Assembly: GCA_003599425.1 (NCBI GenBank)
Contig: QZKC01000094.1
Location: 1-63,245 of the forward strand
Direction of reading: 5' to 3'
Length of the DNA: 63,245 nucleotides
Source: Nitrospiraceae bacterium
GTDB taxonomy: Bacteria; Nitrospirota; Thermodesulfovibrionia; UBA6902
The position numbers and the translations under genes were made by a program. Under the pieces are notes generated by a model. That model worked only from the letters and a program-made list of their open reading frames with translations. It made no database searches and had not been told where the DNA came from. Below are positions 6,235 to 63,245 of the stretch, in pieces (within the stretch, counting starts at the first letter, position 1; every line of letters begins with the position of its first letter).

Positions 6235-6404
6235 AAAGAAACTGAGTCAAAAAATTTCAATAACAAATCCCGTTATAAATATCGGAAATGATTATAGCAT
6301 AATATCTTTACATTACAAACATTTTATTTGCTAATAAATTCATAACACAACACCTTGGTTTCAAAGCGTCACAGCTCAGAAGTTCGAAAGTGCGGAAGGC
6401 ATAA

Positions 6405-6838: not shown

Positions 6839-7258
6839 GACAGCCCCCTTGCATCCAGAAAATATTTAATTGCCTTCTCCTGTGCGTCACGAAGTTTTTT
6901 AGTATCAATATACATCCTGAATGCAAGCGAAGAGAATTCACTGAATATTCCCTGTTTTTTCTCATAGATTATGATGCCGTTCTTTGCAACGGAGAACTTA
7001 ATAAGCGGACTTGCACGTTTCAGATCAATAACATCAATGTTGTCTGTATGTAAGAGACCGATAATCCTGTTTGTAATTGCCAAACATATCAATGGGGTTA
7101 TCAAAAATAAGCGCCAGGTCGATATCGCTCCGTTTATGCACTTTGCCTGATGCGGCAGAGCCGAAAAGAATAACAAGCTGTAATCCTTCCTCTTTGAAAA
7201 GAGGAGACAGTTTTTCTTTGATTTTATCGACAGATAAAGTGTTCTCGTGCCCTGACAT
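6835..7258 (-). pseudogene. mntA: MntA-type minimal nucleotidyltransferase antitoxin, frameshifted
   Basis: N-half LVILFGSAASG...SDIDLA in one frame, C-half LAITNRIIGLLHTDNIDVIDL in another; one extra base near 7082-7084; GTGA overlap with hepT. Confidence 0.85.
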
Positions 7259-42819: not shown

Positions 42820-42829
42820 TCAATTTACC

Positions 42830-45800: not shown

Positions 45801-46543
45801 TTCCCTGTAACATCATTCTTGTGATACGTGGACTGGGTATGACATACCTCGCAGACCCCATCATATGTTGCATCGCCGTCCGCAAATGAGTTTGTACCCG
45901 TTGAATTGAAAAAACGAACTGTTTTAATTCCACTGTTAGGCGTGGTGATTTTTTCTCTAATGAGACTCCCATAAACAATGATGAACGTATTCCCCGGGCT
46001 GACCTTTGTCAGATTGATAGTTCCCTCAACCGTGAGCGTGTCGATGTTATTTCCGGTAATTTTATAATTGTAGGAGTTTTGTGCAATGTTGGGAACAAGG
46101 ATCAAGCCCTGATACTGGTTATCTGTCCATCCAGCCCCTGTCTTTGTCAGTGACGTTGCATTCACTGAAGATACTACCCCCTGATAGATGTAACTGGCGC
46201 TTCCATAGGTCCTGAACTGCTTGTGTCCGTGCGGGTTATGGCAAACACGGCACTCAACCGTCCAGTCTCCGTAACTATTATCCGTCTGATAACTGGAATG
46301 GGTATTTACCCCCATCGCCCCCCAATGACAACTCCAGCACAGTTGGTTGTATTCAGTATCATCTATTCCATTCTGACCGTACGTCAGTCCCTCTATCATA
46401 AGCGAAGGTTGTGAACCCCACACATAATGGCAACTCTCACAATTGATCCCTTCTGTGCCGTTATGGGGAAAATCAAGCGCATACCCATGAGCTGAAAAAA
46501 AGCAAAGCGCCATAACTAATAGTATTCTGATAATTGTATTCAT
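42830..46543 (-). CDS. CxxxxCH/CxxCH-domain multiheme cytochrome c (23 CxxCH plus 7 CX4CH)
   Basis: Counted by hand; the repeating C-x4-CH...W...CxxCH unit is the Geobacter-type TIGR01904-like pattern; signal peptide. Confidence 0.92.
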   Translation of the reverse strand: MNTIIRILLVMALCFFSAHGYALDFPHNGTEGINCESCHYVWGSQPSLMIEGLTYGQNGIDDTEYNQLCWSCHWGAMGVNTHSSYQTDNSYGDWTVECRVCHNPHGHKQFRTYGSASYIYQGVVSSVNATSLTKTGAGWTDNQYQGLILVPNIAQNSYNYKITGNNIDTLTVEGTINLTKVSPGNTFIIVYGSLIREKITTPNSGIKTVRFFNSTGTNSFADGDATYDGVCEVCHTQSTYHKNDVTGNHAHNAGTDCTYCHKHTKGFKIACDICHGYPPTVNTATGGPNGLVNNPGVTGSSTAGAHNVHVNTKGYDCATCHYNSVGTGSTHNNGLSVTLGFYLFNGSYQGGTYNGQSGVTYNATTTAPVTFVSNNNNKTCSNIYCHSTGQSTSSGSSSTPTYASPLWDTPASGVCGTCHNVTGLTSGSHAAHLGTTGVNGCGDCHTGAANNASSYNSANHINALIDVANSYTAGGTPGNGYGTCSTASCHDDATGNLKTTPTWGTPGGGCSECHADVPGTGSHTKHVTTTLYSTAVCGDCHDSAVRGTTPPEQHLDSNIDVYDVTAGDLGYPSNKTKASAYTTCTTAYCHSTGQSTTDGNSATPAYAIPTWGNSASAACGTCHKVTEASGLTSGSHAAHLGTTGVNGCSDCHTGAANDASSYNYSNHVNKSIDVANSYTKGGTPGNGYGTCSAAACHGNSSPTWGTDFTGIDGCTKCHGTPTASPAPAYTQAPPTDTAGDSAATDAQVGAHRAHLQSTISSNVACSECHIVPAIVSAAGHINDATPGTAELIFGALASSNSATPSYSGGQCSNVYCHGGAMPKGTTNGADRTPIWNNTNYLTGNAANDCSRCHGYPPSSLAVHSGKGATDCIICHNAGVNASGTGFTDPSSHINGTVNISDNCNDCHSSKGGPAPGNIADTPHARHVQTPYVGKVSTSDYGKLPNWYSYSNLGGVPNKGCGYCHPQSSATHMNGVINLNLDPNDTGAAGTMKGKNNTVQSYTQTQRVSVTCSSVYCHSSGYFDGSTYQYKSSPNWYGGTFVGDKCDDCHGNMPDTSSHMTHGRIAIHYDTIYNGTNGLLPAGAASGGGHGDPNTSTTINCNLCHNNVVKMAANDKNTVCAVCHAATPVGTMVIDPSATSHVTGTADINFANVIIRSKAQIRDDITTVTELNTYWQRNNGYKQGASSYDSSKATLASQATYSNGTCSNVSCHNGFDITWNTNISTCAACHQDVPRTDE

Positions 46544-49323
46544 TCCCCTATCCCAGGATTTCCAACCGCAACATTTACTCCATATTTTGAATTGAAAACC
46601 GTGAAGCTGCTTTTCTGTATTCCATAGGCATCGAATATTTTCACGACTGCCTCATTATTCATACCTGAACCCATGCCTGCGATTATCTCTGCTACTCCAT
46701 CTCCGTCCAGATCTCCGCTTGCCAGGTTAGCGCCATAATTTCCAGCTACCCCGGCATTGAATATGGATATAGTTTCAGCATCACCGTTTACAACCTGTAT
46801 ATCGAAACTCTTTTTATAACGGGGGCCGGTTCCGATGATGATCTCATCAAAATAATCTCCATTTATATCTGCGCTTGCCAGGCTGTTACTATTTACATAT
46901 CGTGATTCAACAGGAAATTCCTTAACAAGTGAAACACTCCACTGACCAACGCCCTTTTCCGTATTTACTTTCCATATCCGGATCCAGCCTTTAATACTTT
47001 TATTACCTTTTCCGGTTCCTGACATTGTGACCAGTTCACTCATTTCATCACAATCAATATCTGTGGTAGCAACACGAACTCCGTTATTCGTTTCAAAAGC
47101 AAGCAGGCTGATCCCACTGTCTACAAGTTTGTCCTGGGCAGTGTCATATGCAAATATTTTCACCTCAGCAGGATTATTGACCCCAGATCCCACTACTACC
47201 TCTGAGTGTCCGTCTCTGTCAAAATCACAACTGGTGACATTGGCTCCATATTTATAATCAAACGCTGTTGTTTTCAGTTGGCTCAGTTCATGACCTTTTC
47301 GATCGAAGATTCTTATTTCCGCAGGATTTGAAGGACCAGGTCCAGGAGCAGTGATGATCTCATCGTAGCCGTCACAGTTAACATCACCGGTTGCGACATT
47401 GACTCCATAGGGATACTGATGGGCAATGAATTCTACTCCGGTGGATGTTCCATTTGGGTTGTATCCCTTCACAAGTCCGTTATCTTCAAGTCCGGGGCCT
47501 TTGCCTACAATTATCTGCTTGAAATATCCACTCTGATTATTTGACGCTTCCTTTATGTATTCGCCGGTAAAACTGATGCTACTGTCTTTTTCCAGTGTCA
47601 GGCCCTGAGAAACCGGCTGCTCATATCCGGCAACATCTCCGAAAACTACGACGTATGTGCCGGCAGGTGCATCATTGACCTGCCAGTTCTTGCCGCTTCC
47701 AGAATATGAAGCAGTACCGTTGATGATGAATGTGGCCGCTTTTATATTTGTTAAGACATTGATCGCTCCCTTTGCCTCTGTGACACTCAGACTCACTGAT
47801 ACAGCCCTTGTATCTGACGTTGTGCCTTGTCCTTCTATTGTTATAGTTCCGGTATATGTTCCCTGCGTCATGCTTGTTATATCAGCACTCACTGAAATAC
47901 TATCCTGTGCTGTTCCAGCATATTTGTTTAAAGTAATCCACGCTCTGTCTGAAGAAGCTGTCCAGTTGAGTATGCCATCACCTGCATTGATTACAGAGAT
48001 ACTCTGTGATGACGGCTGAGCACCATTCAATGAAGTAAACTCCAAAGATACCGGCGTTACAGAAAGTACAGGTGTCGGTGGACGAACTACATTTAAAGTG
48101 ATATCAATTATTTCTGTGCCTCCTGATTCTGCGTTTATCACAACAGTCCCCTCGTATATTCCTTCTGACAATCCTTCAAGATTCACCCCAACCTGCATGG
48201 CATGGCTTTCTGACTGTGCAATGGAGCCAGCACTTTCGGAGAGAGTTATCCAACTGTCCTGAGCAGATGCTGACCAGCTCAGAACGCTGTTCCCTGTGTT
48301 TTTTATTTCCACGACCTTTGAATCAGGATTATTACCATTCGTAAATCCATCAAATGAAAGGACTGAAGGTGTCACTTCCATTTGTGTATATGCATCCAGT
48401 CCATACACTTCCACGCTTTTGGTATTTAGTGACGCTATAAACAGCCTGTTGCTTTTACCCCTAACCAGTCCCAAAGGGGTCCTTAGAGGATTTTCTGTTC
48501 CATAGATCGAACCGATATACAGGCCGTTTTCATCAAAGACACGAACTACCTGCTGATATGCATCGCTGACATATATTCTTCCAACTTCATCCTTGATAAC
48601 ACCGACCGGACGGCTTAGTTTCCCTGCTCCAATTCCATACTCTCCAAAACTCCTTTTGTAGATGCCGTTCAGATCAAACACCTGTACTCTTGCACCATGG
48701 CTCATTTCCGTTCCTGATTGCCTTAACTGACGGTCGACAACAATGATCTCTCCTGAGGTTTCATGGATTGATATTGAGGTGGGAAAAGTAAATTGGCCAT
48801 TGCTACTTCCACTCCCTCCAAAAGAATATTTGAAAGAGCCATCAGAATTAAATACCTTTATCAGATCCTGGTCGCTGTCCACCACATAAATTTCGCCTGC
48901 TTTACTTGTCGCTATCGCTATCGGTTGTTTGAATTCCCCATCTCCTGATCCAAGTTTGAATAACTTATGCAAATTGCTGTCATAAGCTTCTACGTTCCCA
49001 TTTCCTTGATTACCCACAAAAATTCTCCCGCTTTCGTCAACCGCAACGCCAAGTGGTACATTCAGTCCATAAAGCAACTTCAACAGGTGGCCGCTCTGGC
49101 TGTAAATGAGCAATCTGTTCTCTATTGATTCAGTTACATAGAGGTTTTCATATATATCGAGTGCTGCAGCAGTGGGGGCCGTGAGATTTTCCGTAACCGG
49201 CTGAAGTCTTGAATAGTCAGGCATAACAGCAGCCTGTAATGACACTGTCCATAAGAACATAAAACAAAGAAAAAAATACAGCGAGATAAAATCACATCCT
49301 ATATTCGCTCTACTCTTTTTCAT
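46540..49323 (-). CDS. NHL beta-propeller plus two BACON/Ig-like domains, PEGA-like domain and FG-GAP repeats
   Basis: GSGDGEFKQPIAIA and GQFTFPTSI repeats; VTPSVLSF...N.G...LSWSAS..WITL twice; VATGDVNCDGYDEII repeats; GGAG RBS before ATG 49323 (track start 49362). Confidence 0.85.
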   Translation of the reverse strand: MKKSRANIGCDFISLYFFLCFMFLWTVSLQAAVMPDYSRLQPVTENLTAPTAAALDIYENLYVTESIENRLLIYSQSGHLLKLLYGLNVPLGVAVDESGRIFVGNQGNGNVEAYDSNLHKLFKLGSGDGEFKQPIAIATSKAGEIYVVDSDQDLIKVFNSDGSFKYSFGGSGSSNGQFTFPTSISIHETSGEIIVVDRQLRQSGTEMSHGARVQVFDLNGIYKRSFGEYGIGAGKLSRPVGVIKDEVGRIYVSDAYQQVVRVFDENGLYIGSIYGTENPLRTPLGLVRGKSNRLFIASLNTKSVEVYGLDAYTQMEVTPSVLSFDGFTNGNNPDSKVVEIKNTGNSVLSWSASAQDSWITLSESAGSIAQSESHAMQVGVNLEGLSEGIYEGTVVINAESGGTEIIDITLNVVRPPTPVLSVTPVSLEFTSLNGAQPSSQSISVINAGDGILNWTASSDRAWITLNKYAGTAQDSISVSADITSMTQGTYTGTITIEGQGTTSDTRAVSVSLSVTEAKGAINVLTNIKAATFIINGTASYSGSGKNWQVNDAPAGTYVVVFGDVAGYEQPVSQGLTLEKDSSISFTGEYIKEASNNQSGYFKQIIVGKGPGLEDNGLVKGYNPNGTSTGVEFIAHQYPYGVNVATGDVNCDGYDEIITAPGPGPSNPAEIRIFDRKGHELSQLKTTAFDYKYGANVTSCDFDRDGHSEVVVGSGVNNPAEVKIFAYDTAQDKLVDSGISLLAFETNNGVRVATTDIDCDEMSELVTMSGTGKGNKSIKGWIRIWKVNTEKGVGQWSVSLVKEFPVESRYVNSNSLASADINGDYFDEIIIGTGPRYKKSFDIQVVNGDAETISIFNAGVAGNYGANLASGDLDGDGVAEIIAGMGSGMNNEAVVKIFDAYGIQKSSFTVFNSKYGVNVAVGNPGIGE

Positions 49324-49380
49324 CTTTATCTCCATATATATGTTCAGTAATTTATCGCTCATTGTCCTATTTTTTTACAA

Positions 49381-50355: not shown

Positions 50356-50625
50356 CTATTTGGGTTGATTCTTTTTGTAACGTGTCGTTTCCTTAAATAT
50401 ATCGGCGTGGCAACTTAAGCAATCGATGATGTTACCGCCGGCGGCCTGAACCATGGCCTCATATTTTTTGGGGTTTTTCTGTTTTACTTTTTCGATATGC
50501 TTTTTGATCAGCTCTTCAGTCTTTGAGTCTGCAAATGCCACTGTTCCTGAAACTGACAACAGTGATAAACATGCAAACAATATCGCTATTGGTCCTAATC
50601 TTCTCATAATAACACCTCGCCTCAT
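50356..50625 (-). CDS. Small exported monoheme cytochrome c
   Basis: Signal peptide (AFA-D); single CLSCH; start may be ATG 50604. Confidence 0.65.
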   Translation of the reverse strand: MRRGVIMRRLGPIAILFACLSLLSVSGTVAFADSKTEELIKKHIEKVKQKNPKKYEAMVQAAGGNIIDCLSCHADIFKETTRYKKNQPK

Positions 50626-50628
50626 GTT

Positions 50629-51942
50629 TTAAAACAAATAATCGCCATATGCCACTGCATCAATCAGATTATTTCCGTGTTTGTGACATTCAGTACACAG
50701 GCGATATTCATCACCTATGGGTCCATGACAGGTTGTCGACGAACACCCTGCATCTCCTCCAGGTACCGTTGCCGGATGGTCATGCCTTGCATCACTTATA
50801 GCAATATCATGGCACTTGTTGCACAAATTTATCCATTCAGTATTTGGATCTCCTGAGGGGCCAGATCCTGTCCCTGAATCGACAGTAACTGTACTGCCTG
50901 TGCTGCCATTAACTTCCCGTCTTATGAGAAAGAGATTGGGGGAGCTGTGAGGCTCATGACAATCAGTACATGCAAGGACATATGTACCACATGTTGCTGA
51001 TTGATAAGGCGCAAAGATATTTGAACACGTATCAGGTTCCCCAACAGGAGTATTGTTGTCGGCGGTTCCGCTACCGTGTTTTTCGTTACTCCAACTGAAC
51101 GTATTCAGGTTCCTCGCAAGAGGCGTGCTGCTAATCGTATTTGTGTTATTGTGGCAATCTGTGCAATAGGTAACATAATCAGTCAGGTTCGTTCCATTCT
51201 GAGTTGTTGAACCATCCGGCTCATATGTTACAACAGAATTGAACCTGTACGGAGCCTGATATCCTGATGTATAATCACTCATCTTCTCACCTGCACTGTC
51301 TCCCCATAGTCCCCAGGAATTATTGTCATTGCTTGAATGCAGACTGGGGCGGGAAACGGGATACCCACGCGAACCTGAAGTTTTTGCACTGCCCGGTGCA
51401 TTCGCAGGGTCTCCCTGGGCAGCATGCGGATTATGGCATGCATTACATGGGTTAGAGTCTGCTGTATAATTCCATCTCCCTGTGATGAATGTTCTTATGT
51501 CATCAAGATAATGCGACGTGTCCGGTGAAGTAAATGAAAAAGATTCGAGGGTGTCATTTACTGTATCAGCATTCCAGCCGCCTGCGCGGTAACTGTAACT
51601 CCTGTTAATAATGCTCCCTCCCGATTGATAAGCCCCTGCATCCTTATGGCACTGAAAACAGAAATTATCGGTCTGGCTCACATGGTTACTGTAAAATAGC
51701 GTGAATGAGGATGGCCCGCCTGATGATGGCAGCGGTTCTGATCCGTCTATGCTGGCATGCATTTCATGACAGTGAGCACACAGGCCTTTTGTGTAATCAG
51801 GGAATCCTGATGCAGTCCGCTTAACGCCATAAGTGGAATTCCCATGAGCTGAGCTGAGATATGTACCGGCATCCGCGAACTTGCCGCAAATAAGCAAGAT
51901 TGAAATCAGCACTGTTCCAGTGATAAAAACGCTTTTTTTCAT
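50629..51942 (-). CDS. Extracellular-type multiheme cytochrome c (7 CxxCH plus 1 CX4CH)
   Basis: CAHCH, CFQCH, CNACH, CTDCH x2, CNKCH, CTECH, CSSTTCH; signal peptide; Ser/Thr/Gly-rich. Confidence 0.9.
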   Translation of the reverse strand: MKKSVFITGTVLISILLICGKFADAGTYLSSAHGNSTYGVKRTASGFPDYTKGLCAHCHEMHASIDGSEPLPSSGGPSSFTLFYSNHVSQTDNFCFQCHKDAGAYQSGGSIINRSYSYRAGGWNADTVNDTLESFSFTSPDTSHYLDDIRTFITGRWNYTADSNPCNACHNPHAAQGDPANAPGSAKTSGSRGYPVSRPSLHSSNDNNSWGLWGDSAGEKMSDYTSGYQAPYRFNSVVTYEPDGSTTQNGTNLTDYVTYCTDCHNNTNTISSTPLARNLNTFSWSNEKHGSGTADNNTPVGEPDTCSNIFAPYQSATCGTYVLACTDCHEPHSSPNLFLIRREVNGSTGSTVTVDSGTGSGPSGDPNTEWINLCNKCHDIAISDARHDHPATVPGGDAGCSSTTCHGPIGDEYRLCTECHKHGNNLIDAVAYGDYLF

Positions 51943-51964
51943 TTTGCCTTTTTCTTATAAAACA

Positions 51965-53110
51965 TCAGTTTCTTGATGTATGACATACGTTGCATCCTGA
52001 TATGGCGGCTGAAAGAGTTGAACTCCTGTAATTCCATCTCATCATATCATCATTATCAGTTGCATGTGCGGCATGGCAGGACAAGCACATGACCGCAGTT
52101 CCAGAACCCGGGGTTACTGTGCTGCTCATTGAGCTGGGAACTGTCGTTCTTGCAACAGGTATGGTTATATTGTACGCTGTATAGCTTGCATATTCACCGC
52201 TATTAGGCAATATCACATCTGTGGGGTGCCGAAGGAAGGGTGAAGTAGTATCATCCCCTATACCCTGTGAATTATCCAGTTGATTAATAACATGGAATGC
52301 CCGGTGACATGTCCCGCAAAAACCGCTCATAGTATTGTTGGAGACCTTTATCCCGCCCGAACCTATTGGAGCAACATGACAAAGACCCGTACAGTCTCCG
52401 TTGTAAACAACCGGAGCAGTCGCTCCAAAGTATTCATTGTGGTTCGATGCATCAAAGTTCTGCCACTTCGTAGATGCACTGACCTGACCGTCGTTTTCGT
52501 ATCCCATGACTGAATACAAAAATCTGTAGCTATTGTACGTCTGGTCCGCAACATCGATCTTTCCGCTTGTGTTTTTGTGGTGAGCGCCTTTCACCCCGCC
52601 AGAGCTTGAACGGATACCATGACATCCTCTCGCACCGGCGCAGTTGAGTGTCGACCCGAAATTACTCACCGGCGCATGATAACCCGGAGGCCCGGCCAGC
52701 GCCCCTGTTAATGTATTATCAAGATTGCCAAGGTCTATAACATTATGACCTTTGTTGTCTGAGGCTCCGCTGCCTTTGGTCCCGAGCACATAGGCAAAAT
52801 TACCTCCAGCAAGATCAGCAGACGCACTGCTGTGATATACCTGCGGCGCTCCGGTGACAGGGTCAATATTGCTTGCGGCACCTGAGCCATGACAGCCCAA
52901 ACACCCGCCCAATGTCAGTGCGTCGTACGGCCCGGTACCTTTCCATGGCTGACCTGAAGCACCATATGTAGCCACTGCCGAACCACCCTGGCTGTTATGC
53001 ATTGTATGACATGTGCTGCACGCACCCGATATGGCTGTATTTCCATAATCAGCGGGGGTGCAGATAACGGCCAGCAAGATGACGATATATTTTAAAGTTT
53101 TCATTGACAT
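51965..53110 (-). CDS. OmcS-like multiheme cytochrome (5 CxxCH plus CX5CH plus CX3CH)
   Basis: Motif order matches OmcS as recalled: CxxCHTMHNS.GG, CL.CH, GG.F..V, KGHN, L.C..CH, MS.[FW]C..CH..[FI]H, LRHP, V.CLSCH.AHA...M.R.N, terminal C..CH. Confidence 0.75.
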
Positions 53111-53181
53111 ATATTATGCAATAATTGTTCTGTATATTTTAAGAACCTCTATATTAAGCAAGCCCACAATAAGAAAACATG

Positions 53182-54468
53182 CTACATTCTGTGACATTGT
53201 ATGCAAAGCGCCCTGTTCCGGTCAGCAGTAAGCATAAAATCAGCTCTCGCTGCATGCATACTATGGCATGAATTACAGGTGACAGGCCCTCCGCTTCTTG
53301 GATCCACTATATTTGGCCCAACCGGATGCGTAACTTTATGTTGCGATTCATGGCATCGCACACACATAGCAATCTCATCATCCCTGTAATTGAGCGGCCG
53401 GTCTGAATGCATCGGGATGTGGCACTCAAAACATTTCCTGTTTTTTACAGGAGCACACCCTACTGATTTCAGGGCCTTCTCCATTGCAGCAGTGTTTCTC
53501 TCGGTCTTCTCATGGCATCCCGAGCAAATCTTTGTTTCGCTTGCGGTAAAACTCTTCTTCCCGGATGCGTGGGAGTCATGACAAACAACACATGAATTCT
53601 TTGCATCTTTCACATGGATATCGCTGCTGACATATTTCAATTGTGAGTCATCCTTTTTATGACAATCGAGGCATACTCCCTCGCCTTCTTTTTTAGTCGT
53701 TATCCTGCTTCCCGGAGTAATAGGATTGTGGCACTGGCTGCATTCCTTGTCCAGAAAGGCCTTATGTCCATAAGGGCCAAGCGCTCCTTTTATCTGTGAT
53801 CCGTGACCTGAGTGGCATGATGTGCAATCTGATACAGCTACTTCAGAGACAATGGACACTTCACCTGCCCTGCATCTGGGTGCATGACACTCGCGGCAAA
53901 GCTTATTCGGAGCAGAAATCAGCAAAAACTCCTCCGAAGACCCGTGCGAATTATGACAGGATGAACATTGGCCTTTCTTGAAAGGCGAGCATCCATATGG
54001 CTTATCCATCTGTGCTTCTATGTTTTCATGACAACCAATACAAAGGTCTTTCTCAGCATTTACAAGAAGGTTCGTATAATTGCCGCTATGTGGGTAATGG
54101 CATTTTGTGCAGAGATCGTCCCTGAGCGGACTATGGACGCTTTGGCTTTTCAGAAGATTACGGATCTTTTCATGACAGCCGATACAGACAGAATTAACAT
54201 CATCCATCAAACCCTTGACATTCCCGGCATGGGAATTATGGCAGGTTAAGCACTTGCCCTCTCTGAAAAGAAAGTGAACAGCAGGGGATGAAAGTTTTTC
54301 TTTCAGTTCCCTGTGACATTCATAGCAGAGGCCGGGGACAGATGATTTCAGCTTGACCTCAGCAGGAGCAGGAGAATACCCAAGAGGCATAAGAAAATAA
54401 ATTATTATGAAGAGGACAATCTTGATTTTGAGGTTTTCAGTGGCACGCATCGCAGTCTCCTTCCGCAA
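53182..54468 (-). CDS. 16-heme periplasmic cytochrome c (doubled-CXXCH/cytochrome c3-like repeats)
   Basis: 16 CxxCH counted by hand, with CxxCHxxH repeats; start may be ATG 54447. Confidence 0.92.
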   Translation of the reverse strand: MRKETAMRATENLKIKIVLFIIIYFLMPLGYSPAPAEVKLKSSVPGLCYECHRELKEKLSSPAVHFLFREGKCLTCHNSHAGNVKGLMDDVNSVCIGCHEKIRNLLKSQSVHSPLRDDLCTKCHYPHSGNYTNLLVNAEKDLCIGCHENIEAQMDKPYGCSPFKKGQCSSCHNSHGSSEEFLLISAPNKLCRECHAPRCRAGEVSIVSEVAVSDCTSCHSGHGSQIKGALGPYGHKAFLDKECSQCHNPITPGSRITTKKEGEGVCLDCHKKDDSQLKYVSSDIHVKDAKNSCVVCHDSHASGKKSFTASETKICSGCHEKTERNTAAMEKALKSVGCAPVKNRKCFECHIPMHSDRPLNYRDDEIAMCVRCHESQHKVTHPVGPNIVDPRSGGPVTCNSCHSMHAARADFMLTADRNRALCIQCHRM

Positions 54469-56410
54469 CCGGCTTGTGAAGAATATTTTTCAGCAGTCCT
54501 GGTTTTTCCGTCACATGCGGGACATGACAGGTCAAGCAATGGCCGATCTTCGCTATCGGCTGAGTATGTGCTTTAAGAAGATTCCCGGTATCCTCTGAAT
54601 GGCATTGCACGCATAAAGCAGGATCCTTGGCACTCAGCAAATATTTTGAATCAGAATAGTGGGGGAAATGGCAGCTCAGGCAACTCCCCTCCTCCAACTG
54701 AAGGTGCCCTTTCCTCGTTTTTGCAGTTATGATCCTCTCATGACATGAGAGACAAAGCTCATTTGGCTTGTTCAAAAGCTGATATTTGAGCTTGGTACCA
54801 TGAGGACTGTGACAGGACGTACAGTTGCCGTTTTCTACAGGCAGATGTTTGTTGCTGCTCTTATACGTTTCGGTCTCCATTTTCTTATGGCATGTATAAC
54901 AAAGCTCCTTCACCGGCCTGGTGATGACCCCGGTGAAATCACTCGCATGGGGATCATGACATTCATTACATTTTTTATCCCTGAACAGGGGATGCCCGCC
55001 GCTTTTATCAACTCTCAGGAACATGCTCTCATGGCATTTGATGCAAACCTGCTCCGGCGGCCTGCTCAATAATTTTTCAAATGAAGACGCATGTGATCTG
55101 TGGCAGGAACCGCACGCTCTCTTTGCTACCGGGGTGTGGACATATATTTTGAAAAAATTTTTCTCTTCTTTCTGGTGACAGGTATAACACAGATCAACAG
55201 GGGAAACCTTCATCATATATGGATATCCAGTTCCGTGTGAATCATGGCATTTTGTGCATTCAAGACTGGAGAAAGGTTCATGGGAGAAGGCCATTTTCAA
55301 TTCATCACGCACTCCCTGATGACAGGTAAAACACAACTGCTTCTGTGAAGCTTTAAGGTAATACGGATTTTCAGATGCATGAGGATCGTGGCAGGCTGTA
55401 CAGCCCTGCTTTTTGATCGGGTCATGCACATGTGACACGTTTATCTTAGGTTTTTCAGCGTGGCACTTCATGCACAGAGCATTTTTATCCTCTCTGGTGA
55501 TCTTTGGATAATCAGAGGCATGAGGGCTGTGACACGTGATGCACTCTCCTTTTTCTGTAACCGGATGCCTGTATGCTGTCCGGTATGAACGCTCTTCTTT
55601 TTTATGACAGGAATAACAAAGTGAGCTGCCTGAAGCTGTCAGACCGAACGGCTCCGGATCAGTCGCTGGCCTGTGGCAGGAACTGCATTGAGCGAGTCTT
55701 AACGGTTCATGAACAGATTCTCTAAGCAATTTATCATTGGAGGAACTGTGAGGAGCGTGGCAGTCTGAACAGTGTGATCGCTCAACCGGATAATTCTTGT
55801 GGGCATTATTAAAAACAGAAGACTTGTAATCATGGCAGGAGCTGCATAACTCCCTCTCTTCCTTAATGAGGTTGCTCTTGAACTGAGACCCATGGGCTGC
55901 ATGACAGGCGAGACAGCCATCCTCAAGCGCTTTATGCTGTCTGGGCCGGGCAAAAGAAGTTTTATCATGACAGACAAAACATTGCCCGCTTCCTGTATTT
56001 TTTTGCAAAGACTTATTGTCTGAAGCATGCGGATCATGGCACGGAAGACATACTCCGTTTTTCAGGGCAGTATGGACACTGGACATTTTCTGGACATCTG
56101 AAGCCATCTGTGAATGGCACGTGTAACAGAGTTTCCTCTCTTCTTTTTCCCTGAATGATTTGACTGCAAGCTTTCCATGCCTGAGGTGGCAGGACTCACA
56201 GTCCTGTTTACTCATCGGATCATGGACATACTTCATCTTAAAAGCATCCTGCTTTTCCTTATGGCAGTCCATACAGGGCTTTGGCGCAAATTTCTTCCTC
56301 ACCTGCGGTTCAGGGGCACAGGAAACGAAAATAGCTGTTATCAGAACTGTCAGAATTAATTTAAAAATGTTATGAGGATTAATTCTTTCCACCTTTGAAC
56401 CCTTTTTCAA
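54437..56410 (-). CDS. 26-heme cytochrome c lipoprotein
   Basis: 26 CxxCH counted by hand; lipobox FVSC. Confidence 0.92.
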   Translation of the reverse strand: MKKGSKVERINPHNIFKLILTVLITAIFVSCAPEPQVRKKFAPKPCMDCHKEKQDAFKMKYVHDPMSKQDCESCHLRHGKLAVKSFREKEERKLCYTCHSQMASDVQKMSSVHTALKNGVCLPCHDPHASDNKSLQKNTGSGQCFVCHDKTSFARPRQHKALEDGCLACHAAHGSQFKSNLIKEERELCSSCHDYKSSVFNNAHKNYPVERSHCSDCHAPHSSSNDKLLRESVHEPLRLAQCSSCHRPATDPEPFGLTASGSSLCYSCHKKEERSYRTAYRHPVTEKGECITCHSPHASDYPKITREDKNALCMKCHAEKPKINVSHVHDPIKKQGCTACHDPHASENPYYLKASQKQLCFTCHQGVRDELKMAFSHEPFSSLECTKCHDSHGTGYPYMMKVSPVDLCYTCHQKEEKNFFKIYVHTPVAKRACGSCHRSHASSFEKLLSRPPEQVCIKCHESMFLRVDKSGGHPLFRDKKCNECHDPHASDFTGVITRPVKELCYTCHKKMETETYKSSNKHLPVENGNCTSCHSPHGTKLKYQLLNKPNELCLSCHERIITAKTRKGHLQLEEGSCLSCHFPHYSDSKYLLSAKDPALCVQCHSEDTGNLLKAHTQPIAKIGHCLTCHVPHVTEKPGLLKNILHKPVAEGDCDACH

Positions 56411-58118
56411 ATGAATCCAGGTTTTCAGGATACATTATTATTTCAGCATCCTGTCTCAGTTTGTCCGTATAGCCGCTGAGGAGCTCATTGAACTTCTTCC
56501 GGAACAGTATCGCCTGGATTGAAGATTTTACTTTACTGAAATCCTCAGGCTCTCTCCTGCTCTTTTCCTGAAGCATGATGATCTTGTAAAACTCAGCGTC
56601 TTCAATTATGGAGCTTATATCGCCGGGATTCATTGAGTCAATAATTTCCTGTAACGGCCTCGGAAGACCCGATTTCATTGACCATCCAGCATCCCCTCCC
56701 TGCAGGGCATAAGAATCAGCAGATCTTGTTTTTGCAAGCCATGAGAAACTCGCGCCGCCCTTCAGGCTGCTCTCAATATCTTGGGCTTCCTCCCTTGTCT
56801 TTAAGGTGATCTGCTGGATTTTATACGTATAAGGCTTTAAGAACTCATCCTGATGATCTGTATAATACGTATTTAAATCTTCATCAGATATTATTATCTT
56901 CGGGACGAGTACAGTAGTAAAGAATGTATTTTTAAGGATCTGCTCCTTATATCGCCTCGCCATATCTTTCAGATCAGATGTTGCGGTATATTGGCGCCTC
57001 AGAGCTTCAATATCAACCAGCTTTTTATCAAGCCAATGGTTCAAAACCGCTTCTTTATTGCGGCTTGTACCGGAAAGCATGGCAGTAAAAGCACCTGCGG
57101 TGAGAACCGTATCTTCAACCTCTACCAATGGCCTCTCATCCTTTAGCCATGTTTCCCTTGCTTCATTCTTTCCGTCAAATACAATAGCAGACAAGATATC
57201 ATCATGTACCATTGGTTTGATCGATCCACGGAGAGACCTGAGATATTCAGCACTACGCTCTTTTATCATCTGCTGTTTGGCCTCATGCGTGATCTTTTCC
57301 CTGATCTTTTCCAGGTCCTCAACGGGGGCCTCCTGCCGGCTGATCAATTTCAGGATGTAATATTTATTGCCGTTTTCGATAACACCGCTGAACTCTCCTT
57401 CTTTGAGAGAGGCAACAGACTCATCAAATTTTGTTCCGAGGGAGTTCCTTGTCATGACAATTTCAGTTTGATCTTTCAGGACATGAGGGGTATGTCCCTT
57501 TGCCATGTCGCTGAAATTGCTCCCGCTTCGCAGTTGTTCAAGGATCTTTTCTGCTTCCTCGCTGGTATTTGCCTCGATAACGGAAAGAGTAAGCCGCTCA
57601 TAGTTCTTCCTGTAATATCCTCTGATATCTTCTTCATCTACAGATACTTTATGCAGGATCTCCTCATCGTAGAGCCTTGTTACCGACTCCCTGAGAATAT
57701 ACGCCTCTGTTTTCTGCCTCACTTCTGGAAATTCTTCCATATTCATGTGCTTCGCTTCCTGCACGATCAGTTTGTCGTCTATGAGTTTTTGCAGATAGTC
57801 ATGTAAGTTAAGAGACTGGGCGGATGACATGTCCTCCCTCCTGTGCGATATCTCAAGTGAATACACGTAGTCTCCTGTCGTGACAGGTTCACCATCAACA
57901 AGCACGAGAATATCGCTTTTGTGAGGCAATGACGCGCATCCAAATAAAAACAAAACAAAAAGCAGGGGATACAGGAGAAAAAAAAGAGGATTTACGGAGT
58001 TATAAAGCAGTCGCGACATGGCGATTACACTGTTTTGTATCTTCGCCGACAGCAGCTTGACTGCCTTTATGTTGAACACTCTGAATGCTAAATTTATTGT
58101 TTGCTCGGTCATTCTCAC
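56379..58118 (-). CDS. SurA/PpiC-type peptidyl-prolyl isomerase lipoprotein with two parvulin-like domains
   Basis: Lipobox LFGC; GSNFSDMAK and GASFSWLAKTRSADSYALQGGDAGW; true start possibly ATG 58019. Confidence 0.85.
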   Translation of the reverse strand: MRMTEQTINLAFRVFNIKAVKLLSAKIQNSVIAMSRLLYNSVNPLFFLLYPLLFVLFLFGCASLPHKSDILVLVDGEPVTTGDYVYSLEISHRREDMSSAQSLNLHDYLQKLIDDKLIVQEAKHMNMEEFPEVRQKTEAYILRESVTRLYDEEILHKVSVDEEDIRGYYRKNYERLTLSVIEANTSEEAEKILEQLRSGSNFSDMAKGHTPHVLKDQTEIVMTRNSLGTKFDESVASLKEGEFSGVIENGNKYYILKLISRQEAPVEDLEKIREKITHEAKQQMIKERSAEYLRSLRGSIKPMVHDDILSAIVFDGKNEARETWLKDERPLVEVEDTVLTAGAFTAMLSGTSRNKEAVLNHWLDKKLVDIEALRRQYTATSDLKDMARRYKEQILKNTFFTTVLVPKIIISDEDLNTYYTDHQDEFLKPYTYKIQQITLKTREEAQDIESSLKGGASFSWLAKTRSADSYALQGGDAGWSMKSGLPRPLQEIIDSMNPGDISSIIEDAEFYKIIMLQEKSRREPEDFSKVKSSIQAILFRKKFNELLSGYTDKLRQDAEIIMYPENLDSFEKGFKGGKN

Positions 58119-58178
58119 TGCTCATGTGTATCGTGAAAAGAGCCTCTCTGCGGTGATCAGACGAGTTTTTCTGCCCCG

Positions 58179-59252
58179 TTATTGTGACAGTGCTTTCTTC
58201 ATCTGTTTCACCATTGATGAGACGACGTTATAGGCAACCCTGTCAGCTGGCTCTTTCTCTCCCCATTCAAAGGCAATGACATTCTTTTCGCTGTTTAATC
58301 GAGACGTATTATACCACAGTATTTTGTTATTACGGGCATCCAGCAGCCTTGCAGTCATTGATATTACCGATGCAGTTGAGGTATCGGATCCTGAGGGATA
58401 GCTCTCTACAGTGCCGAGGAGTACCGTGTCCGCGTCCAGTTCTTTTGATAACTCCTCCATCCTTTTGTAATCAAGTTCCCCGTTGCTCCTCACTTGCAGT
58501 TCAACTAGCATTTTTCTGACATCCCCGAATTCGATAGGCTCAAAAGGGGCCTGTTTCAGAAGTTCTACCAGGAACATATACATCGCAACCATGCCGGCCC
58601 CGTCAAATCTGCTTTTGTTCTGAAAAGGGATAACGGCCACTCGATATGTTGTCTCCTTTTCCCTCTTCGCAGGTGAAACGTGAAAAGACTCCAGAAGCCT
58701 ATCAAGCGCTCCTGGAACAAGTTTCTCCACTTCCCTGGTCCTGCCCAATCCCAGGATTGAGGTAACATCTGCACCGCTGACAAAGGCATAATCCGCCCAG
58801 ACAATAAGGCCGGTAGTTGTGTCAATAAGCCGTGCTACGAGGCCTACATGCGGGTCATCTCCTGAAAAAAATGAAATTATCGAACCTGTAAGAATGCTCT
58901 GCACCTGAAATTCCTCATACAGTTTACGGGCCGTTTCTCCCGATACATACCCTGCAAGCCTCGACCTCTCCTTGCAAAGGAACTCACTGACTGCATCCTC
59001 ATCCATTACCTCAAACCCTCTTGTCTGCAGTTCTGCCTTTAACGCGGGAATAAGCTTTTCCCCGGCTCTCTTGTCAACGCTGAAGTTATCGAAAACAAGG
59101 ATAGCAATCTTTCCGCCTGTGCTTTGGAGCGGGCTCTCAACGAGGGGGGTATCTGTTTCCGCTGCTGTGACAAAAGGAAACCCTGTAAGCAGCAAAGCAG
59201 TTGATGCAATAAGGATTATAATTATCGTACAGTTCTTAGCAAACATTTTCAT
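58179..59252 (-). CDS. Protein with two tandem CsgG/LpoB-like domains
   Basis: KIAILVFDNFS...GSI...ARLIDTTTG.IVW and RVAVIPFQNKS...LGTV...ARLLDARNNKILW. Confidence 0.7.
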   Translation of the reverse strand: MKMFAKNCTIIIILIASTALLLTGFPFVTAAETDTPLVESPLQSTGGKIAILVFDNFSVDKRAGEKLIPALKAELQTRGFEVMDEDAVSEFLCKERSRLAGYVSGETARKLYEEFQVQSILTGSIISFFSGDDPHVGLVARLIDTTTGLIVWADYAFVSGADVTSILGLGRTREVEKLVPGALDRLLESFHVSPAKREKETTYRVAVIPFQNKSRFDGAGMVAMYMFLVELLKQAPFEPIEFGDVRKMLVELQVRSNGELDYKRMEELSKELDADTVLLGTVESYPSGSDTSTASVISMTARLLDARNNKILWYNTSRLNSEKNVIAFEWGEKEPADRVAYNVVSSMVKQMKKALSQ

Positions 59253-59290
59253 ACTGTTACTCCCGGCGCCCGTACAAATTTTCCAGATTT

Positions 59291-59872
59291 TTACTGTCTT
59301 TTGAGCGTCTGTACCATTCCCCGTATCAAAACCATAACCGTCTCGCTCATGGTTTCCGATTTTGCGCCAAAATGTCGAGCCATAAAGTCAGCACCTCCGC
59401 GCGTTCCGGTCATGGACCAGACAATATTGCCTGACCCCGTGTCCGCCATCATCAAGGTAATGGTCGCCTCAGGAGCAGAGACATTCCCTATACGGGTCTC
59501 CCCGTACTTTTCGACAGCCCCAATAATAAGCCCCTCAACCTGTAGCGACTTGCCGATGGCCTGTATCTGCTTTTCATTTAAAGATGAAATGTTCTTTATA
59601 TCAAGGTCATTCAGCGCCGTCATAACCTCCCCGGGGACAATAACATCAACCAGCCCTGAAGCAAGCAATTCACTGGTGACTATCTGCCTAACGATGTCTG
59701 CCGCCGCCCTTTCAGGGGTCAGATTGTCTAAAGGCATAACCGCAACCTTTTTGAAATAACTGAAATCAATGTCTTCACGTATATGGTAAACAGGGGCGCT
59801 GCTGCGACAGCCCGAAACAATCACTACAACGAACAACATAAGGGTCAATATACATTTCTTCATCATATTCAT
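59291..59872 (-). CDS. CsgG/HfaB/GNA1162-like lipoprotein
   Basis: Lipobox VSGC; KVAVMPLDNL, VEGLIIGAV, DTGSGNIVWS. Confidence 0.7.
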   Translation of the reverse strand: MNMMKKCILTLMLFVVVIVSGCRSSAPVYHIREDIDFSYFKKVAVMPLDNLTPERAAADIVRQIVTSELLASGLVDVIVPGEVMTALNDLDIKNISSLNEKQIQAIGKSLQVEGLIIGAVEKYGETRIGNVSAPEATITLMMADTGSGNIVWSMTGTRGGADFMARHFGAKSETMSETVMVLIRGMVQTLKRQ

Positions 59873-59883
59873 AACGCTTCTCC

Positions 59884-60504
59884 TTAAAATAAATTATCGA
59901 ATGCCTCTTTTATGACATTCCTGGAAACTTCGCCCAGCGTAGCAATTTCTGCCCCGAAATGTCTTGTCCAGAATCCCGGACCTCCGCTCGTATGCCATGT
60001 TGACCAGAGTACCTTGCCAGTTGCCGATTCATACAGCGTGAGATAAACCGACACCTCGGGATAGGAAACCGATATCCCCCTGCTTATTTGATATACACTA
60101 ACTGAGCCGCCCATAATCCCATCTACCTTCAAGGCTTCACCTATCTCCTGAATGTCCGATGGCGTCAATGCTTTCAGGGAACTGACCCTCATCTCCTGCA
60201 GCACCCTCCCGACCTCTCCAGGTTCTGTAACATCTATCCCACGTGACAGGAGTTCGATGCCTGTAATGCTGCCTATCTTTTCATCAGCATATCCATCGGT
60301 AGTGTAGTTTTCAAAGGGAAGAACTGCAATACTCTTAATGTGTTTTACATCAGTGTGGGGACGGCTATAGTGTTTTACTCCGCCGCTGCATCCACAGATA
60401 AAAACCAGACATACATAAAAGAGCAGTTTTCTTTTATCCCTCAGCATCATTTTTAGTTCTAATCTCCCGAAACTGTTCTGAAAATCCCGTTTATTATAAG
60501 GCAC
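59884..60504 (-). CDS. CsgG/HfaB/GNA1162-like lipoprotein
   Basis: Lipobox-like ICGC; SIAVLPFENY, VDGIMGGSV, ESATGKVLWS; paralog of the neighbouring gene. Confidence 0.7.
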   Translation of the reverse strand: MPYNKRDFQNSFGRLELKMMLRDKRKLLFYVCLVFICGCSGGVKHYSRPHTDVKHIKSIAVLPFENYTTDGYADEKIGSITGIELLSRGIDVTEPGEVGRVLQEMRVSSLKALTPSDIQEIGEALKVDGIMGGSVSVYQISRGISVSYPEVSVYLTLYESATGKVLWSTWHTSGGPGFWTRHFGAEIATLGEVSRNVIKEAFDNLF

Positions 60505-60508
60505 CTCA

Positions 60509-62773
60509 TCAGAATCTGCAATTTATATTTGCGGTTACGTTATAGCTTTCGGTTTTATTTTCTTCGCTTGTAACTGTATATCCTGAGGAGAGCCTTAGAT
60601 CGGCAAACTTTGTTATATACCAGATCCCGAAACCATTGATCGTGTCTGTTGTTGTCGGCACCGGGTCAGCTTTGCTGTGCTGGTATCCAAGGTTCAGCCT
60701 TATGGCCGGCAACGGAAGCCAGTCTGCTGTTATTCCTTCGGAAATGGTACTGTCGCCGTCTGCGTCAGTAAAATTAAAGTTGCCCGACAGATTGATAAAC
60801 TGTCCCGGCTGATAGTTGACGATCAGAAGTACATTCTTTGAATCAATAGAATCCTCTTCCGATAATGTATTGGTTATGCCGTAATTCAGATTCCCCGTAA
60901 TGGTGCGGGTGATCCGGGCATTGACCGTCCCGTTTATGAAACTGGTTTTTGATGATGACGTGTTAGATAAAAAGGATTCCGTTTCGGTATATCCGATATC
61001 ATTGATCATGTTGATATACCGGTACAGTTGCGCTCCGATGCTTAACAGATATGAATTACTGACAGAGTCTTTTTCATTAAAATTATATCGTTCGCTCCTG
61101 ATGAGCGAAAGGTTTGTATCAAGCGTCGAAAGGGGGTTAGAATGAAAAGACAGGGAATAAGTATCCAAATACGTATCTATATCATTCTGATTGTCAAAGT
61201 TCTCATTTTTCTGAAACCGTGCCGTTGTGGTAAGCAGCCTGTGCGTCTGCCATATGGCTCCTATGCCAACGTCCCTTGTAATGTTGCTCCTGAAACCAGA
61301 CCCGCCATCCTCTATGGCCTTATCAAAGATGTTTGTAAGTAAACCGCTGAGGGAGCTGAGATAGGACTCCTGGTTCTGATCCCTCCTTTCCACAGAATAA
61401 TCCAGCGTCAGGGTAAGTTTCTCATGAGGATTGGCACCGGCATTGAAGTTCAGCCTCTGGTTGAAGGACCTGAATACATCACTATCCTCACTGTCCGTTA
61501 TGTTGTCCGTGCCGTATGCCTCAATTTCCGTAACAAAAACGTTGGGATTGAGAATGCCGGAAGTCACGAGATTAACCGCCTTAAAGAATGAAGCATTATG
61601 GGGAGAGGAGAACTCTATTTCGAAACGGTATATATTGTTCAGTGCGTCAAATACGATAACCTTAACATCACTGATCGCTATTTGTGTCCAGGTGCCGCCC
61701 TGATTGAAGTCGCTTTTGTAAATATTCCATTGTGCGGGGTTATCAAGTATGTCGTTGAATACATTCGTGGTACTGCTAACATAAATGAACAGCCTGTCCA
61801 CAGGTCTTTGTGAGGATACTGATACCCCAATGTTATGGAGTTTATTGTTCGGATTTGAACTGCCGAGATCGATACCTGTGCTCACATCGAAAATTTCGTT
61901 TGTTAAAACCCCATTGGAAGTTAAAATACCAATATCGGTCGTTACCCCATCGTGCGCATATAGTCCGGTCGCGGACCTCTTAAGGATTACCGTACCTGTC
62001 TGAGATGCAAATTGCCGCGTTTTCCCCCGTGAAAAATTACCCTGATAACCCACAAAATAACGGGATCTCATGAAGCGGAATGAATCTGAATAACCGACAT
62101 TGTACGTACCTGAAAAATTCTCGCTGATCGTCTTTTCAATAGCTGTAAGCGGGGTCCTGTCAGTTGCATGAGTATAGTTCAAGTGAAATCTGAGATCCAC
62201 AGCCTGTGAAGGCATCACATAGGTTGAGCTGACGGTATAGGTATCATTTGTATGGTCAATGTCATCGACTGAATCATGGTCGTAATCCTTTTGTTTGTCA
62301 TAATAAACTGAAAGAGACGGCAAGGAAACCGGATTCAGGTTAAAGCGTGAAAAGTAAAATTCTGATGTTTCTCTGCCTTCATCAGACAGGCGTGCTGTTG
62401 TCCAATCCTCTTCTCTCCTGTATCCAACGTTGAAGTCGTAGATAGAGTTGCGAAGAAAGAATGTAATGCCCGGCTCCAGGAGCCTCCGATTTGATTCTGT
62501 TGTAACGCTGGATTGACCGCTTGAACTGGAATCTATAAGATTTGCCCTCAAGTTAAACTGATATGACAGAAGCGGCGTAAGGTATTGCTCCATGTTCAGA
62601 TAATAATTCTGGTTGAGGGTGTCGCTGGATGATATCTTTTCTCCGTCCTGAACTACCCATGAATTATTATTGGATATATTTATCAGCCCGTTAATACCTT
62701 CAGAACAGGCAAGAGAGCGGCTTAGAATAAGCGCTATAGACATAACTGCAATTTTCCATGCCTTATGCCTCAT
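60509..62773 (-). CDS. Outer-membrane beta-barrel protein with an inserted globular domain
   Basis: Signal peptide, many amphipathic beta-strands, C-terminal YNVTANINCRF ending in Phe. Confidence 0.75.
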   Translation of the reverse strand: MRHKAWKIAVMSIALILSRSLACSEGINGLINISNNNSWVVQDGEKISSSDTLNQNYYLNMEQYLTPLLSYQFNLRANLIDSSSSGQSSVTTESNRRLLEPGITFFLRNSIYDFNVGYRREEDWTTARLSDEGRETSEFYFSRFNLNPVSLPSLSVYYDKQKDYDHDSVDDIDHTNDTYTVSSTYVMPSQAVDLRFHLNYTHATDRTPLTAIEKTISENFSGTYNVGYSDSFRFMRSRYFVGYQGNFSRGKTRQFASQTGTVILKRSATGLYAHDGVTTDIGILTSNGVLTNEIFDVSTGIDLGSSNPNNKLHNIGVSVSSQRPVDRLFIYVSSTTNVFNDILDNPAQWNIYKSDFNQGGTWTQIAISDVKVIVFDALNNIYRFEIEFSSPHNASFFKAVNLVTSGILNPNVFVTEIEAYGTDNITDSEDSDVFRSFNQRLNFNAGANPHEKLTLTLDYSVERRDQNQESYLSSLSGLLTNIFDKAIEDGGSGFRSNITRDVGIGAIWQTHRLLTTTARFQKNENFDNQNDIDTYLDTYSLSFHSNPLSTLDTNLSLIRSERYNFNEKDSVSNSYLLSIGAQLYRYINMINDIGYTETESFLSNTSSSKTSFINGTVNARITRTITGNLNYGITNTLSEEDSIDSKNVLLIVNYQPGQFINLSGNFNFTDADGDSTISEGITADWLPLPAIRLNLGYQHSKADPVPTTTDTINGFGIWYITKFADLRLSSGYTVTSEENKTESYNVTANINCRF

Positions 62774-62879
62774 GTATCCTCAAACGTTCCGTGTCCATGC
62801 TTGCCTGAAATTCTCATTTCTATGTTTCAGCCAGTACCTTAATGAAGAAAACACCGTTGTCGCGTCTGTTTAAGTAACG

Positions 62880-63245
62880 TTATTTCGGGAATACCGCGAT
62901 CCCGTAGGGTCTGTTGCCTACCGGTATAACCATTTCTTCTTTCCTTGCGGTCTTATCAACTACAGAAACACTGTTTGACCCCCTGTTGACCACATAAAGC
63001 TTTATTTCCTCAGGGTCAAGAATAAAAGAACGGGGAGCATCTCCTACCGCAACCACCCCCATGACCGGCGGAGTTACCGTTTTCAAAGCAGCGGAACCTT
63101 CTGTAAACGGCCGTACGATCATGATCTCACCTGGTCTTTCTTTTAAAAGGTAAAGCCTGTCAAACACAGGATCAGAAATGACACCTGTTATGGAGGTCCC
63201 GACATTGTTGATAGCGCTAACCGCATTCTCATCCTCTCCTTTTAT
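62880..63245 (-). CDS. YVTN/YncE-type beta-propeller protein, C-terminal part (runs off the window)
   Basis: Frame open to the window edge; VAVGDAP..., LYVVNRGSNSVSVVD, IPVGNRPYGIA. Confidence 0.85.
   Translation of the reverse strand: MKGEDENAVSAINNVGTSITGVISDPVFDRLYLLKERPGEIMIVRPFTEGSAALKTVTPPVMGVVAVGDAPRSFILDPEEIKLYVVNRGSNSVSVVDKTARKEEMVIPVGNRPYGIAVFPK

Follow-up and report, generated by a model that had tools for sequence, protein, structure and literature searches.

How does a run of multihaem cytochrome genes in an uncultured Nitrospirota bacterium relate to the osc cluster that surrounds omcS in Geobacter sulfurreducens? The window analysed here is the whole of contig C4 (63,245 nucleotides) of a Nitrospiraceae genome, and an earlier note had read its last part, from position 50629, as an OmcS-type nanowire with its complete assembly and export module, apparently outside Geobacter. 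Judged by homology and gene order, the window does hold a genuine osc/oet-type outer-membrane cytochrome cluster. Taken together with a second contig, C26, it is in our view likely to be a second and deeply diverged osc/oet machine, carried by a dsrA-bearing Nitrospirota metagenome-assembled genome (MAG), which would mature or display cytochromes of the OmcS superfamily.

The genome comprises 2.9 Mb in 106 contigs and is estimated to be 89.6% complete with 1.5% contamination. All sizeable open reading frames (ORFs) between 50356 and 63245 lie on the minus strand, with intergene gaps of -32 to 106 nt; a scan of the cluster detected no intrinsic terminator in these gaps. The ten genes that the earlier note had listed as tightly packed and co-directional are all on the minus strand where it placed them, while the monohaem gene s89, at the end of the cluster, was missing from its list. 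Downstream of 50356 the minus-strand run extends to about 35.4 kb. At the other side the cluster is truncated by the contig end at 63245. The last 99 nt of C4 are identical to the first 99 nt of C26, the tail of C4 is unique in the assembly, and the frame of a propeller gene stays open across the junction to give a protein of 539 aa. Window positions 50356-63245 and C26 positions 1-6995 form one minus-strand unit of about 20 kb. Because the cluster runs on into C26, the window does not contain the complete module that had been claimed for it. The order of the genes begins with a sensor kinase, a sigma-54 response regulator, the hexahaem cytochrome c418, an NHL propeller and an OscD-like propeller (DUF4382/YVTN). 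These are followed by an outer-membrane protein of about 750 aa (OscE/OetI-like), two OscF-like small lipoproteins and an OscG-like protein. The cluster closes with an OscH-like peptidyl-prolyl isomerase (PPIase), a 26-haem and a 16-haem cytochrome, the heptahaem c381, the octahaem c437 and the monohaem s89.

A Geobacteraceae host was considered and rejected. GyrB and AtpD, encoded on other contigs, fall into 90%-identity clusters with proteins labelled Nitrospirae, Nitrospirota or Nitrospiraceae bacterium from MAGs, which supports the non-Geobacter host proposed earlier, and the named homologs of c381 and c437 are mostly from Nitrospirota. The genome also carries dsrA, scoring above the curated cut-off; this is a gene of dissimilatory sulfite reductase.

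PMC13194489 and bioRxiv 2025.11.06.686851 identify oscC as GSU2501, an OmcS-like hexahaem cytochrome, oscI as GSU2495, a protein of about 70 kDa with 26 haems, and oscJ as GSU2494, and they connect the block of eight genes GSU2500-2493 with maturation and secretion of OmcS. PMC13194489, citing Shen et al. 2025, connects OscD with morphology, OscE, OscF and OscG with secretion and OscH with folding. The osc machinery has been called widespread and ancient (Shen et al. 2025, Cell Chem Biol 32:239), the same cassette was named OetABI by Murali et al. 2023 (PMC10553843), and OmcS genes in Thermodesulfovibrionia have already been published (PMC8478452). We scanned one genome per species with an OmcS query whose sequence matches the 6EF8 alignment. 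An OmcS relative is encoded in 392 matched stretches, many of them in named genomes of Nitrospirota, Myxococcota, Rokubacteria and Bacteroidota. The 78 named loci kept for comparison come from Geomonas, Citrifermentans bremense, Anaeromyxobacter, many Nitrospirota, Rokubacteria, Bacteroidota and others. Local BLAST of the window proteins against all ORFs of these loci gave a near-universal order, in which an optional kinase-regulator pair, an NHL protein, one or more OmcS homologs, a propeller and a protein of about 750 aa are followed by a lipoprotein of about 195 aa, a protein of about 380 aa, a PPIase and the 26-haem and 16-haem cytochromes. Every machine component of the window cluster has a homolog at the equivalent place in the osc/oet loci, and an OmcS-family gene adjoins the machine genes on both contigs (c381 in the window, c418 on C26). 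This shared order and the conserved count of 26 haems establish synteny with, and homology to, the omcS region. Occurrence outside Geobacter, put forward earlier as the novelty, is not new: osc-type systems beyond Geobacter are already published and are abundant, as the OmcS relatives found here also attest.

Orthology is a different matter. The same genome holds a canonical OmcS/osc cluster on contig C57 (locus L002, 2515-17992), arranged as two divergent operons. One strand encodes an NHL protein, an OmcS homolog of 416 aa, a propeller, a 734-aa outer-membrane protein and two lipoproteins; the other encodes the PPIase, the 26-haem and 16-haem cytochromes and an NHL protein. The C57 OmcS homolog is 51% identical over its full length to G. 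sulfurreducens OmcS (the query sequence, in agreement with the 6EF8 alignment). All proteins of the C. bremense locus find their best match on C57 (30-52% identity, E 1e-70 to 1e-137) and only their second in the window/C26 cluster (22-40% identity), and no reciprocal-best-hit orthology joins the window cluster to the Geobacteraceae one. We also built a maximum-likelihood tree of OscG-like proteins with 37 canonical sequences, among them the C57 copy, spanning Geobacteraceae, Myxococcota, Nitrospirota, Rokubacteria, Bdellovibrionota and Desulfobulbaceae. In this tree a 100/100 clade, consisting of the window protein and its homolog from CP070788, stands on a long branch outside all 37. The preference of the C. 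bremense proteins for C57 and the OscG tree thus identify the window cluster as a paralog, not an ortholog, of the Geobacter cluster. The correspondence to the omcS region that the earlier note suggested therefore stands as synteny and homology and fails as orthology.

The window cluster is a deeply diverged paralogous lineage, which we term type B, with 20-40% identity to the canonical proteins. It is not confined to one assembly. The type-B order, including the duplicated small lipoprotein and the terminal pair of c381-type and c437-type genes, recurs in GCA_016214845.1 at 50-67% identity, and the downstream half recurs in the closed genome CP070788 at 42-55% identity. A c381-family gene (E<=1e-30) is present in 4 of 201 evenly sampled genomes of the phylum, this one included. 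The type-B lineage, its OmcS relatives with CX5CH and seven haems, the conserved octahaem partner and the coexistence with a canonical set are not described in the literature searched.

Type B shares with the G. sulfurreducens cluster (GSU2504-GSU2493) the order of OmcS-family cytochrome, OscD, OscE, OscF, OscG, OscH, OscI and OscJ, as well as the NHL protein and, as in many loci, an upstream two-component regulator pair. Besides its low identity and paralogous status, it differs in that the small lipoprotein is duplicated, the NHL gene lies upstream rather than at the end, and OmcS-like genes flank the machine on both sides. Its cargo has CX5CH at haem site 3 and a seventh motif in c381, with extra octahaem and monohaem genes; the CX5CH motif, the heptahaem c381 and the octahaem c437 bear out the different cargo set that had been anticipated. 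The C57 cluster has the same component set, but beyond its division into two operons it has a single small lipoprotein and no c437-type gene, and its cytochrome carries six CXXCH motifs without CX5CH. The OetABI system of syntrophic sulfate-reducing partners of anaerobic methanotrophic archaea (PMC10553843) consists of a barrel, to which the putative barrel of type B corresponds, together with a cytochrome lipoprotein outside the cell and a cytochrome in the periplasm. As in type B, genes for OmcS-like putative filaments lie next to it and the host has dissimilatory sulfite reductase; the type-B host belongs to another phylum. Homologs of OmcX or Apc2a did not turn up at the type-B cluster, though no search aimed at them was made.

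The cytochrome c381 (381 aa; 51965-53110, minus strand) belongs to the type-B clade of the OmcS superfamily and has five CXXCH motifs, CX5CH at site 3 and an additional CX3CH. The second OmcS-like cytochrome, c418 on C26, has five CXXCH and CX5CH. More than 2400 homologs of c381 are present in a metagenome protein collection, the named ones mostly from Nitrospirota. A phmmer search of c381 against PDB sequences did not match OmcS at E<1. A profile of the c381/c418 family, made from 52 sequences with zero OmcS rows, does match 6EF8/6NEF, at E 3.6e-16 over 329 of 371 positions, so that the earlier assignment of an OmcS-like cytochrome is upheld. Identity of c381 and c418 to OmcS is 25-27%. On this profile evidence the two are true, distant homologs of OmcS.

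When the c381/c418 family is aligned together with OmcS homologs, the motifs of haems 1, 2, 4, 5 and 6 do not vary, and neither do several distal histidines, for example H122 in a KGHN motif and H295 in an RHP motif. Residues C31, C34, H35 and H38 are likewise invariant across the c381 family and the OmcS homologs. H38, the second histidine of the CHTMH sequence, is found in 58/58 aligned sequences and is the equivalent of OmcS His16 in 6EF8 numbering. In OmcS this residue reportedly ligates haem 5 of the neighbouring subunit (Wang et al. 2019); our literature search on OmcS His16 found no useful paper. That OmcS polymerises through an inter-protomer histidine ligand is recorded elsewhere (PMC11936953). 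The differences from OmcS are equally consistent. Site 3 reads C[AS]GxxGCH, a CX5CH motif, throughout the type-B family where OmcS homologs have CXXCH. The c381 subclade, and not the c418 subclade, has one more motif (CXXCH, CX3CH or CX4CH, that is CX2-4CH) before haem 4, and c381 is shorter than OmcS by about 25-50 residues. Neither c381 nor c418 has the six canonical CXXCH motifs by which the OmcS family is recognised. Exactly six CXXCH occur in 112 of the 122 OmcS-like ORFs in the 78 canonical loci, and CX5CH in none of the 122; no paper linking CX5CH with OmcS was found in the literature searched.

The neighbouring c437 (437 aa; 50629-51942, minus strand) represents an uncharacterised octahaem family with seven CXXCH and one CX4CH. 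Its eight motifs are conserved across 50 homologs; more than 1100 homologs exist, mostly in Nitrospirota, and c437-type genes adjoin c381-type genes in other MAGs. The idea that c437 is a third member of the OmcS family was rejected: it has in common with the c381 family only a 49-column module of doubled CXXCH, and the family has no match in the 78 canonical loci. Searched against the PDB, the c437 profile gave generic haem-motif matches only and no solved relative, and phmmer with c437 likewise did not retrieve OmcS at E<1. The AlphaFold2 (AF2) model of c437 has a predicted local distance difference test score (pLDDT) of 47.5, too poor to use. The s89 gene (50356-50625, minus strand) starts 3 nt after the stop codon of c437 and encodes a small monohaem c-type cytochrome of 89 aa with a signal peptide and one CXXCH; it has no Pfam match, and from its position it would belong to the system. 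In CP070788 (locus L083, 12961-13494) a short ORF for ResB, a cytochrome c biogenesis protein, directly follows the c381-type/c437-type pair. This ORF could have a bearing on haem attachment at the non-canonical CX5CH.

Beyond the gene content and order, the homology of the components, the kinship of c381 and c418 with OmcS and the paralogous status, all of which come from the comparisons above, our account of how the machine works proceeds by analogy with Geobacter genetics. The cytochromes would be exported by Sec and receive their haems in the periplasm, where the OscH-like PPIase would chaperone their folding. The barrel and the lipoproteins would pass the cytochromes through the outer membrane or anchor them at it, and the propellers would shape the product. 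The 26-haem and 16-haem proteins would wire the periplasm to the surface product and supply its electrons. Finally, c381, c418 or both may polymerise head to tail as OmcS does, with His38 ligating a haem of the next subunit. By the same analogy we infer a secretion and assembly function for the cluster as a whole. Since the genome keeps a canonical OmcS and osc set on C57, each of the two machines probably serves its own cargo. A bolder version is more speculative, and we would sooner expect it to be wrong than right: type B would be an orthogonal second nanowire system whose machine split from the canonical lineage before the latter spread across phyla. Its product would be a new OmcS-superfamily polymer of heptahaem c381, with c418 possibly seeding or capping it, c437 decorating or extending it and a CX5CH-bound haem at site 3. 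Were this true, one cell could build two wires that differ in their chemistry, and each would have a machine specific to its cargo.

Several points weigh against a machine that displays OmcS-like cytochromes. The AF2 model of c381 is weak (pLDDT 64.3), and its sole fold match in the PDB, 6ef8_A, has E 1.5e-3 and a template modelling score of 0.37 over 406 columns, so the OmcS fold is supported mainly by sequence. CX5CH at site 3 is a putative haem site, not a proven one. The 754-aa protein of the cluster is a putative outer-membrane beta-barrel. The OmcS scan did not recover the locus of G. sulfurreducens PCA (best identity 65%), and Citrifermentans and Geomonas were therefore used as the Geobacteraceae reference. 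According to bioRxiv 2025.11.06.686851, OmcS alone among its paralogs is known to polymerise, and OmcT, OmcJ and OscC are not known to do so; in PMC13194489 OscC is predicted to be periplasmic. The last two points favour a different role for c418, c381 and c437, as non-polymerising monomeric or oligomeric terminal oxidoreductases or periplasmic shuttles, with the cluster serving to mature and anchor multihaem cytochromes of the cell surface in general. The same bioRxiv paper holds that sequence alone cannot tell wire-formers apart; c381 and c418 are distant from OmcS, and the altered haem-3 motif and extra haem could alter subunit interfaces. We nevertheless think this role unlikely, as the CHTMH histidine, reportedly donated to the next subunit in OmcS, is invariant in all aligned sequences, and a dedicated paralogous machine with propellers is retained beside the canonical one.

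A stronger competitor, which we regard as possible though below an even chance, concerns the machine rather than its cargo. In the interpretation of Murali et al. 2023 (PMC10553843) this cassette is a porin-cytochrome conduit, in which the OetI barrel, the outward-facing 26-haem lipoprotein OetB and the periplasmic 16-haem OetA together cross the outer membrane. The barrel would then be a cytochrome sheath and not an export channel, the OmcS-like proteins would be its partners outside the cell, brought to the surface in some other way, and in a dsrA-bearing host electrons could flow inward, by direct interspecies electron transfer or by uptake from minerals, as well as outward. The lipobox on the 26-haem protein and its absence from the 16-haem protein fit such a conduit, as do the conservation of both haem counts across loci and the dsrA gene itself. 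It leaves the conserved PPIase, the two propellers and the OscF and OscG lipoproteins unexplained, and the genetics cited from Shen et al. 2025 in PMC13194489 tie OscEFG to secretion and OscH to OmcS folding. The conduit and the export machine may be complementary rather than exclusive. We give little credence to an artefact of assembly or binning, by which the window and C57 clusters would come from two organisms and the presence of two machines in one genome would be false. The MAG is fragmented and incomplete, with some contamination, and the C4-C26 join rests on the 99-nt overlap. Yet the estimated contamination is low, several c381-family genes occur in another Nitrospirota genome (G157), type-B clusters are present in closed or long-contig Nitrospirota genomes, and the identity of the window cluster is independent of the two-machine point. 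A second osc/oet machine remains the reading we prefer.

The individual machine genes, all on the minus strand, are described here in the order of the cluster. The window contains the C-terminal 121 aa of the OscD-like beta-propeller (62880-63245), with YVTN repeats (TIGR02276, E 7e-13). The remainder of the 539-aa protein is on C26 (1-1353) with DUF4382, at the N-terminus, and YNCE domains. By BLAST it matches the same-position gene in 60+ osc loci, with E down to 1e-38, and its gene is directly upstream of that for the large outer-membrane protein. The latter (OscE/OetI-like; 754 aa; 60509-62773) is assigned by homology and position. It has a signal peptide, is rich in S, T and N, ends in phenylalanine (...NCRF) and has no Pfam match. 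Identity is 53% to the same-position gene in locus L081 and 22-28%, with E down to 3e-25, to the genes of about 750 aa at that position in osc loci. Members of the family give weak F5/8 type C matches and OMP_b-brl is matched by one member only; the family profile found nothing significant in the PDB, its best match being a CBM32 domain at E 0.059. Between two barrel-like halves the family has a central discoidin / F5-8 type C (CBM32-like) domain, at 61560-61830 in the window (about residues 315-405 of the 754-aa protein), which is weakly detected in 7 of 20 members. By its resemblance this domain could be a carbohydrate- or matrix-binding module.

The two OscF-like small lipoproteins are paralogs of each other, with 34% identity. 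The first (206 aa; 59884-60504; lipobox ICGC) has a sub-threshold GNA1162-like match. Like the second, it matches the gene of about 195 aa in osc loci, and L081 has two 192-aa genes here, to the first of which it shows 61% identity. The second (193 aa; 59291-59872; lipobox VSGC), assigned by homology and position, matches the lipoprotein of about 195 aa found at that position in nearly all osc loci (E 1e-20 to 5e-35, 26-37% identity); its LpoB-like match, at 21.1 bits, is below the cut-off. The OscG-like protein (357 aa; 58179-59252) has a signal peptide without a lipobox and scores above the Pfam cut-offs for GNA1162-like, FlgO, CsgG and LpoB. It is a homolog of the gene of about 380 aa at that position in osc loci (E down to 6e-29). 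These three had been called CsgG-like. They are indeed lipoprotein-type proteins, and only the 357-aa one passes the Pfam cut-offs; as the matches of the two small lipoproteins fall below them, CsgG-like is a loose label.

The OscH-like periplasmic chaperone/PPIase (579 aa; 56379-58118; lipobox LFGC) has two parvulin domains (Rotamase_2, E 7e-32; Rotamase, E 7e-20) and is 19-26% identical over about 530 aa to the same-position PPIase in osc loci. Downstream of it sit the genes for the two large cytochromes. The OscI/OetB-like lipoprotein (657 aa; 54437-56410; lipobox FVSC) has exactly 26 CXXCH, a number also found in 20 of 22 full-length homologs from osc loci, to which it shows 36-42% identity with E down to 1e-157. 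The OscJ/OetA-like cytochrome (428 aa; 53182-54468), without a lipobox, has 16 CXXCH and is 32% identical to its 16-haem paralog on C57 and 55% identical to the CP070788 copy.

On C26, upstream of the propeller, lie in order the NHL propeller (327 aa), c418, a sigma-54-dependent response regulator and a HAMP histidine kinase. The periplasmic sensor region of the kinase (C26 5457-6995, minus strand) contains a CXXCH (PVCHKCHG), and the kinase gives a sub-threshold match to the sensor domain of Geobacter class-40H methyl-accepting chemotaxis proteins. From these features it may sense redox state with a c-type haem and regulate the cluster by way of the sigma-54 activator encoded next to it. A sigma-54-type -24/-12 element, TGGCATATGAATTGCT, is present at C26 3845-3860 (minus strand), where 256 nt separate the regulator gene from c418; the element is a single match, by itself not significant. 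Its position before c418 implies that the true c418 start is one of the downstream ATGs. Diverging from the cluster (C26 7283-20235, plus strand) are further multihaem cytochrome genes of 366, 751 and 841 aa, which make the whole C4-C26 region a large electron-transfer island. Downstream of the cluster, the window encodes at 38008-49362 (minus strand) a 940-aa NHL/BACON/FG-GAP protein and two cytochromes, one of 1237 aa with 23 CXXCH and Geobacter-type CX4CH...CXXCH motifs and one of 1603 aa with 11 CXXCH. TPR proteins, including a TPR lipoprotein downstream of 50356, and CarboxypepD_reg proteins flank these three genes, and the genes of this region do not adjoin the type-B cluster in GCA_016214845.1. 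At 7600-31000 (plus strand) a same-strand run of about 20 genes has N-terminal sequences that resemble polysaccharide and glycosyltransferase biosynthesis genes.

The locus amounts to a natural experiment, in which a canonical OmcS/osc set and a deep-branching paralogous set occur in one genome. The type-B cargo keeps the polymerisation histidine and has an altered haem-3 motif, with an extra haem in c381. If the type-B proteins polymerise, they would offer a new filament architecture for electron cryo-microscopy, with seven haems per subunit, and would make it possible to test how specific an osc machine is for its cargo. CX5CH at site 3 would then serve as a marker in metagenomes, where OmcS calls by hidden Markov model or BLAST lump or miss this class. 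The locus is relevant, too, to electron exchange between Nitrospirota that carry sulfite reductase and the minerals or cells they interact with.

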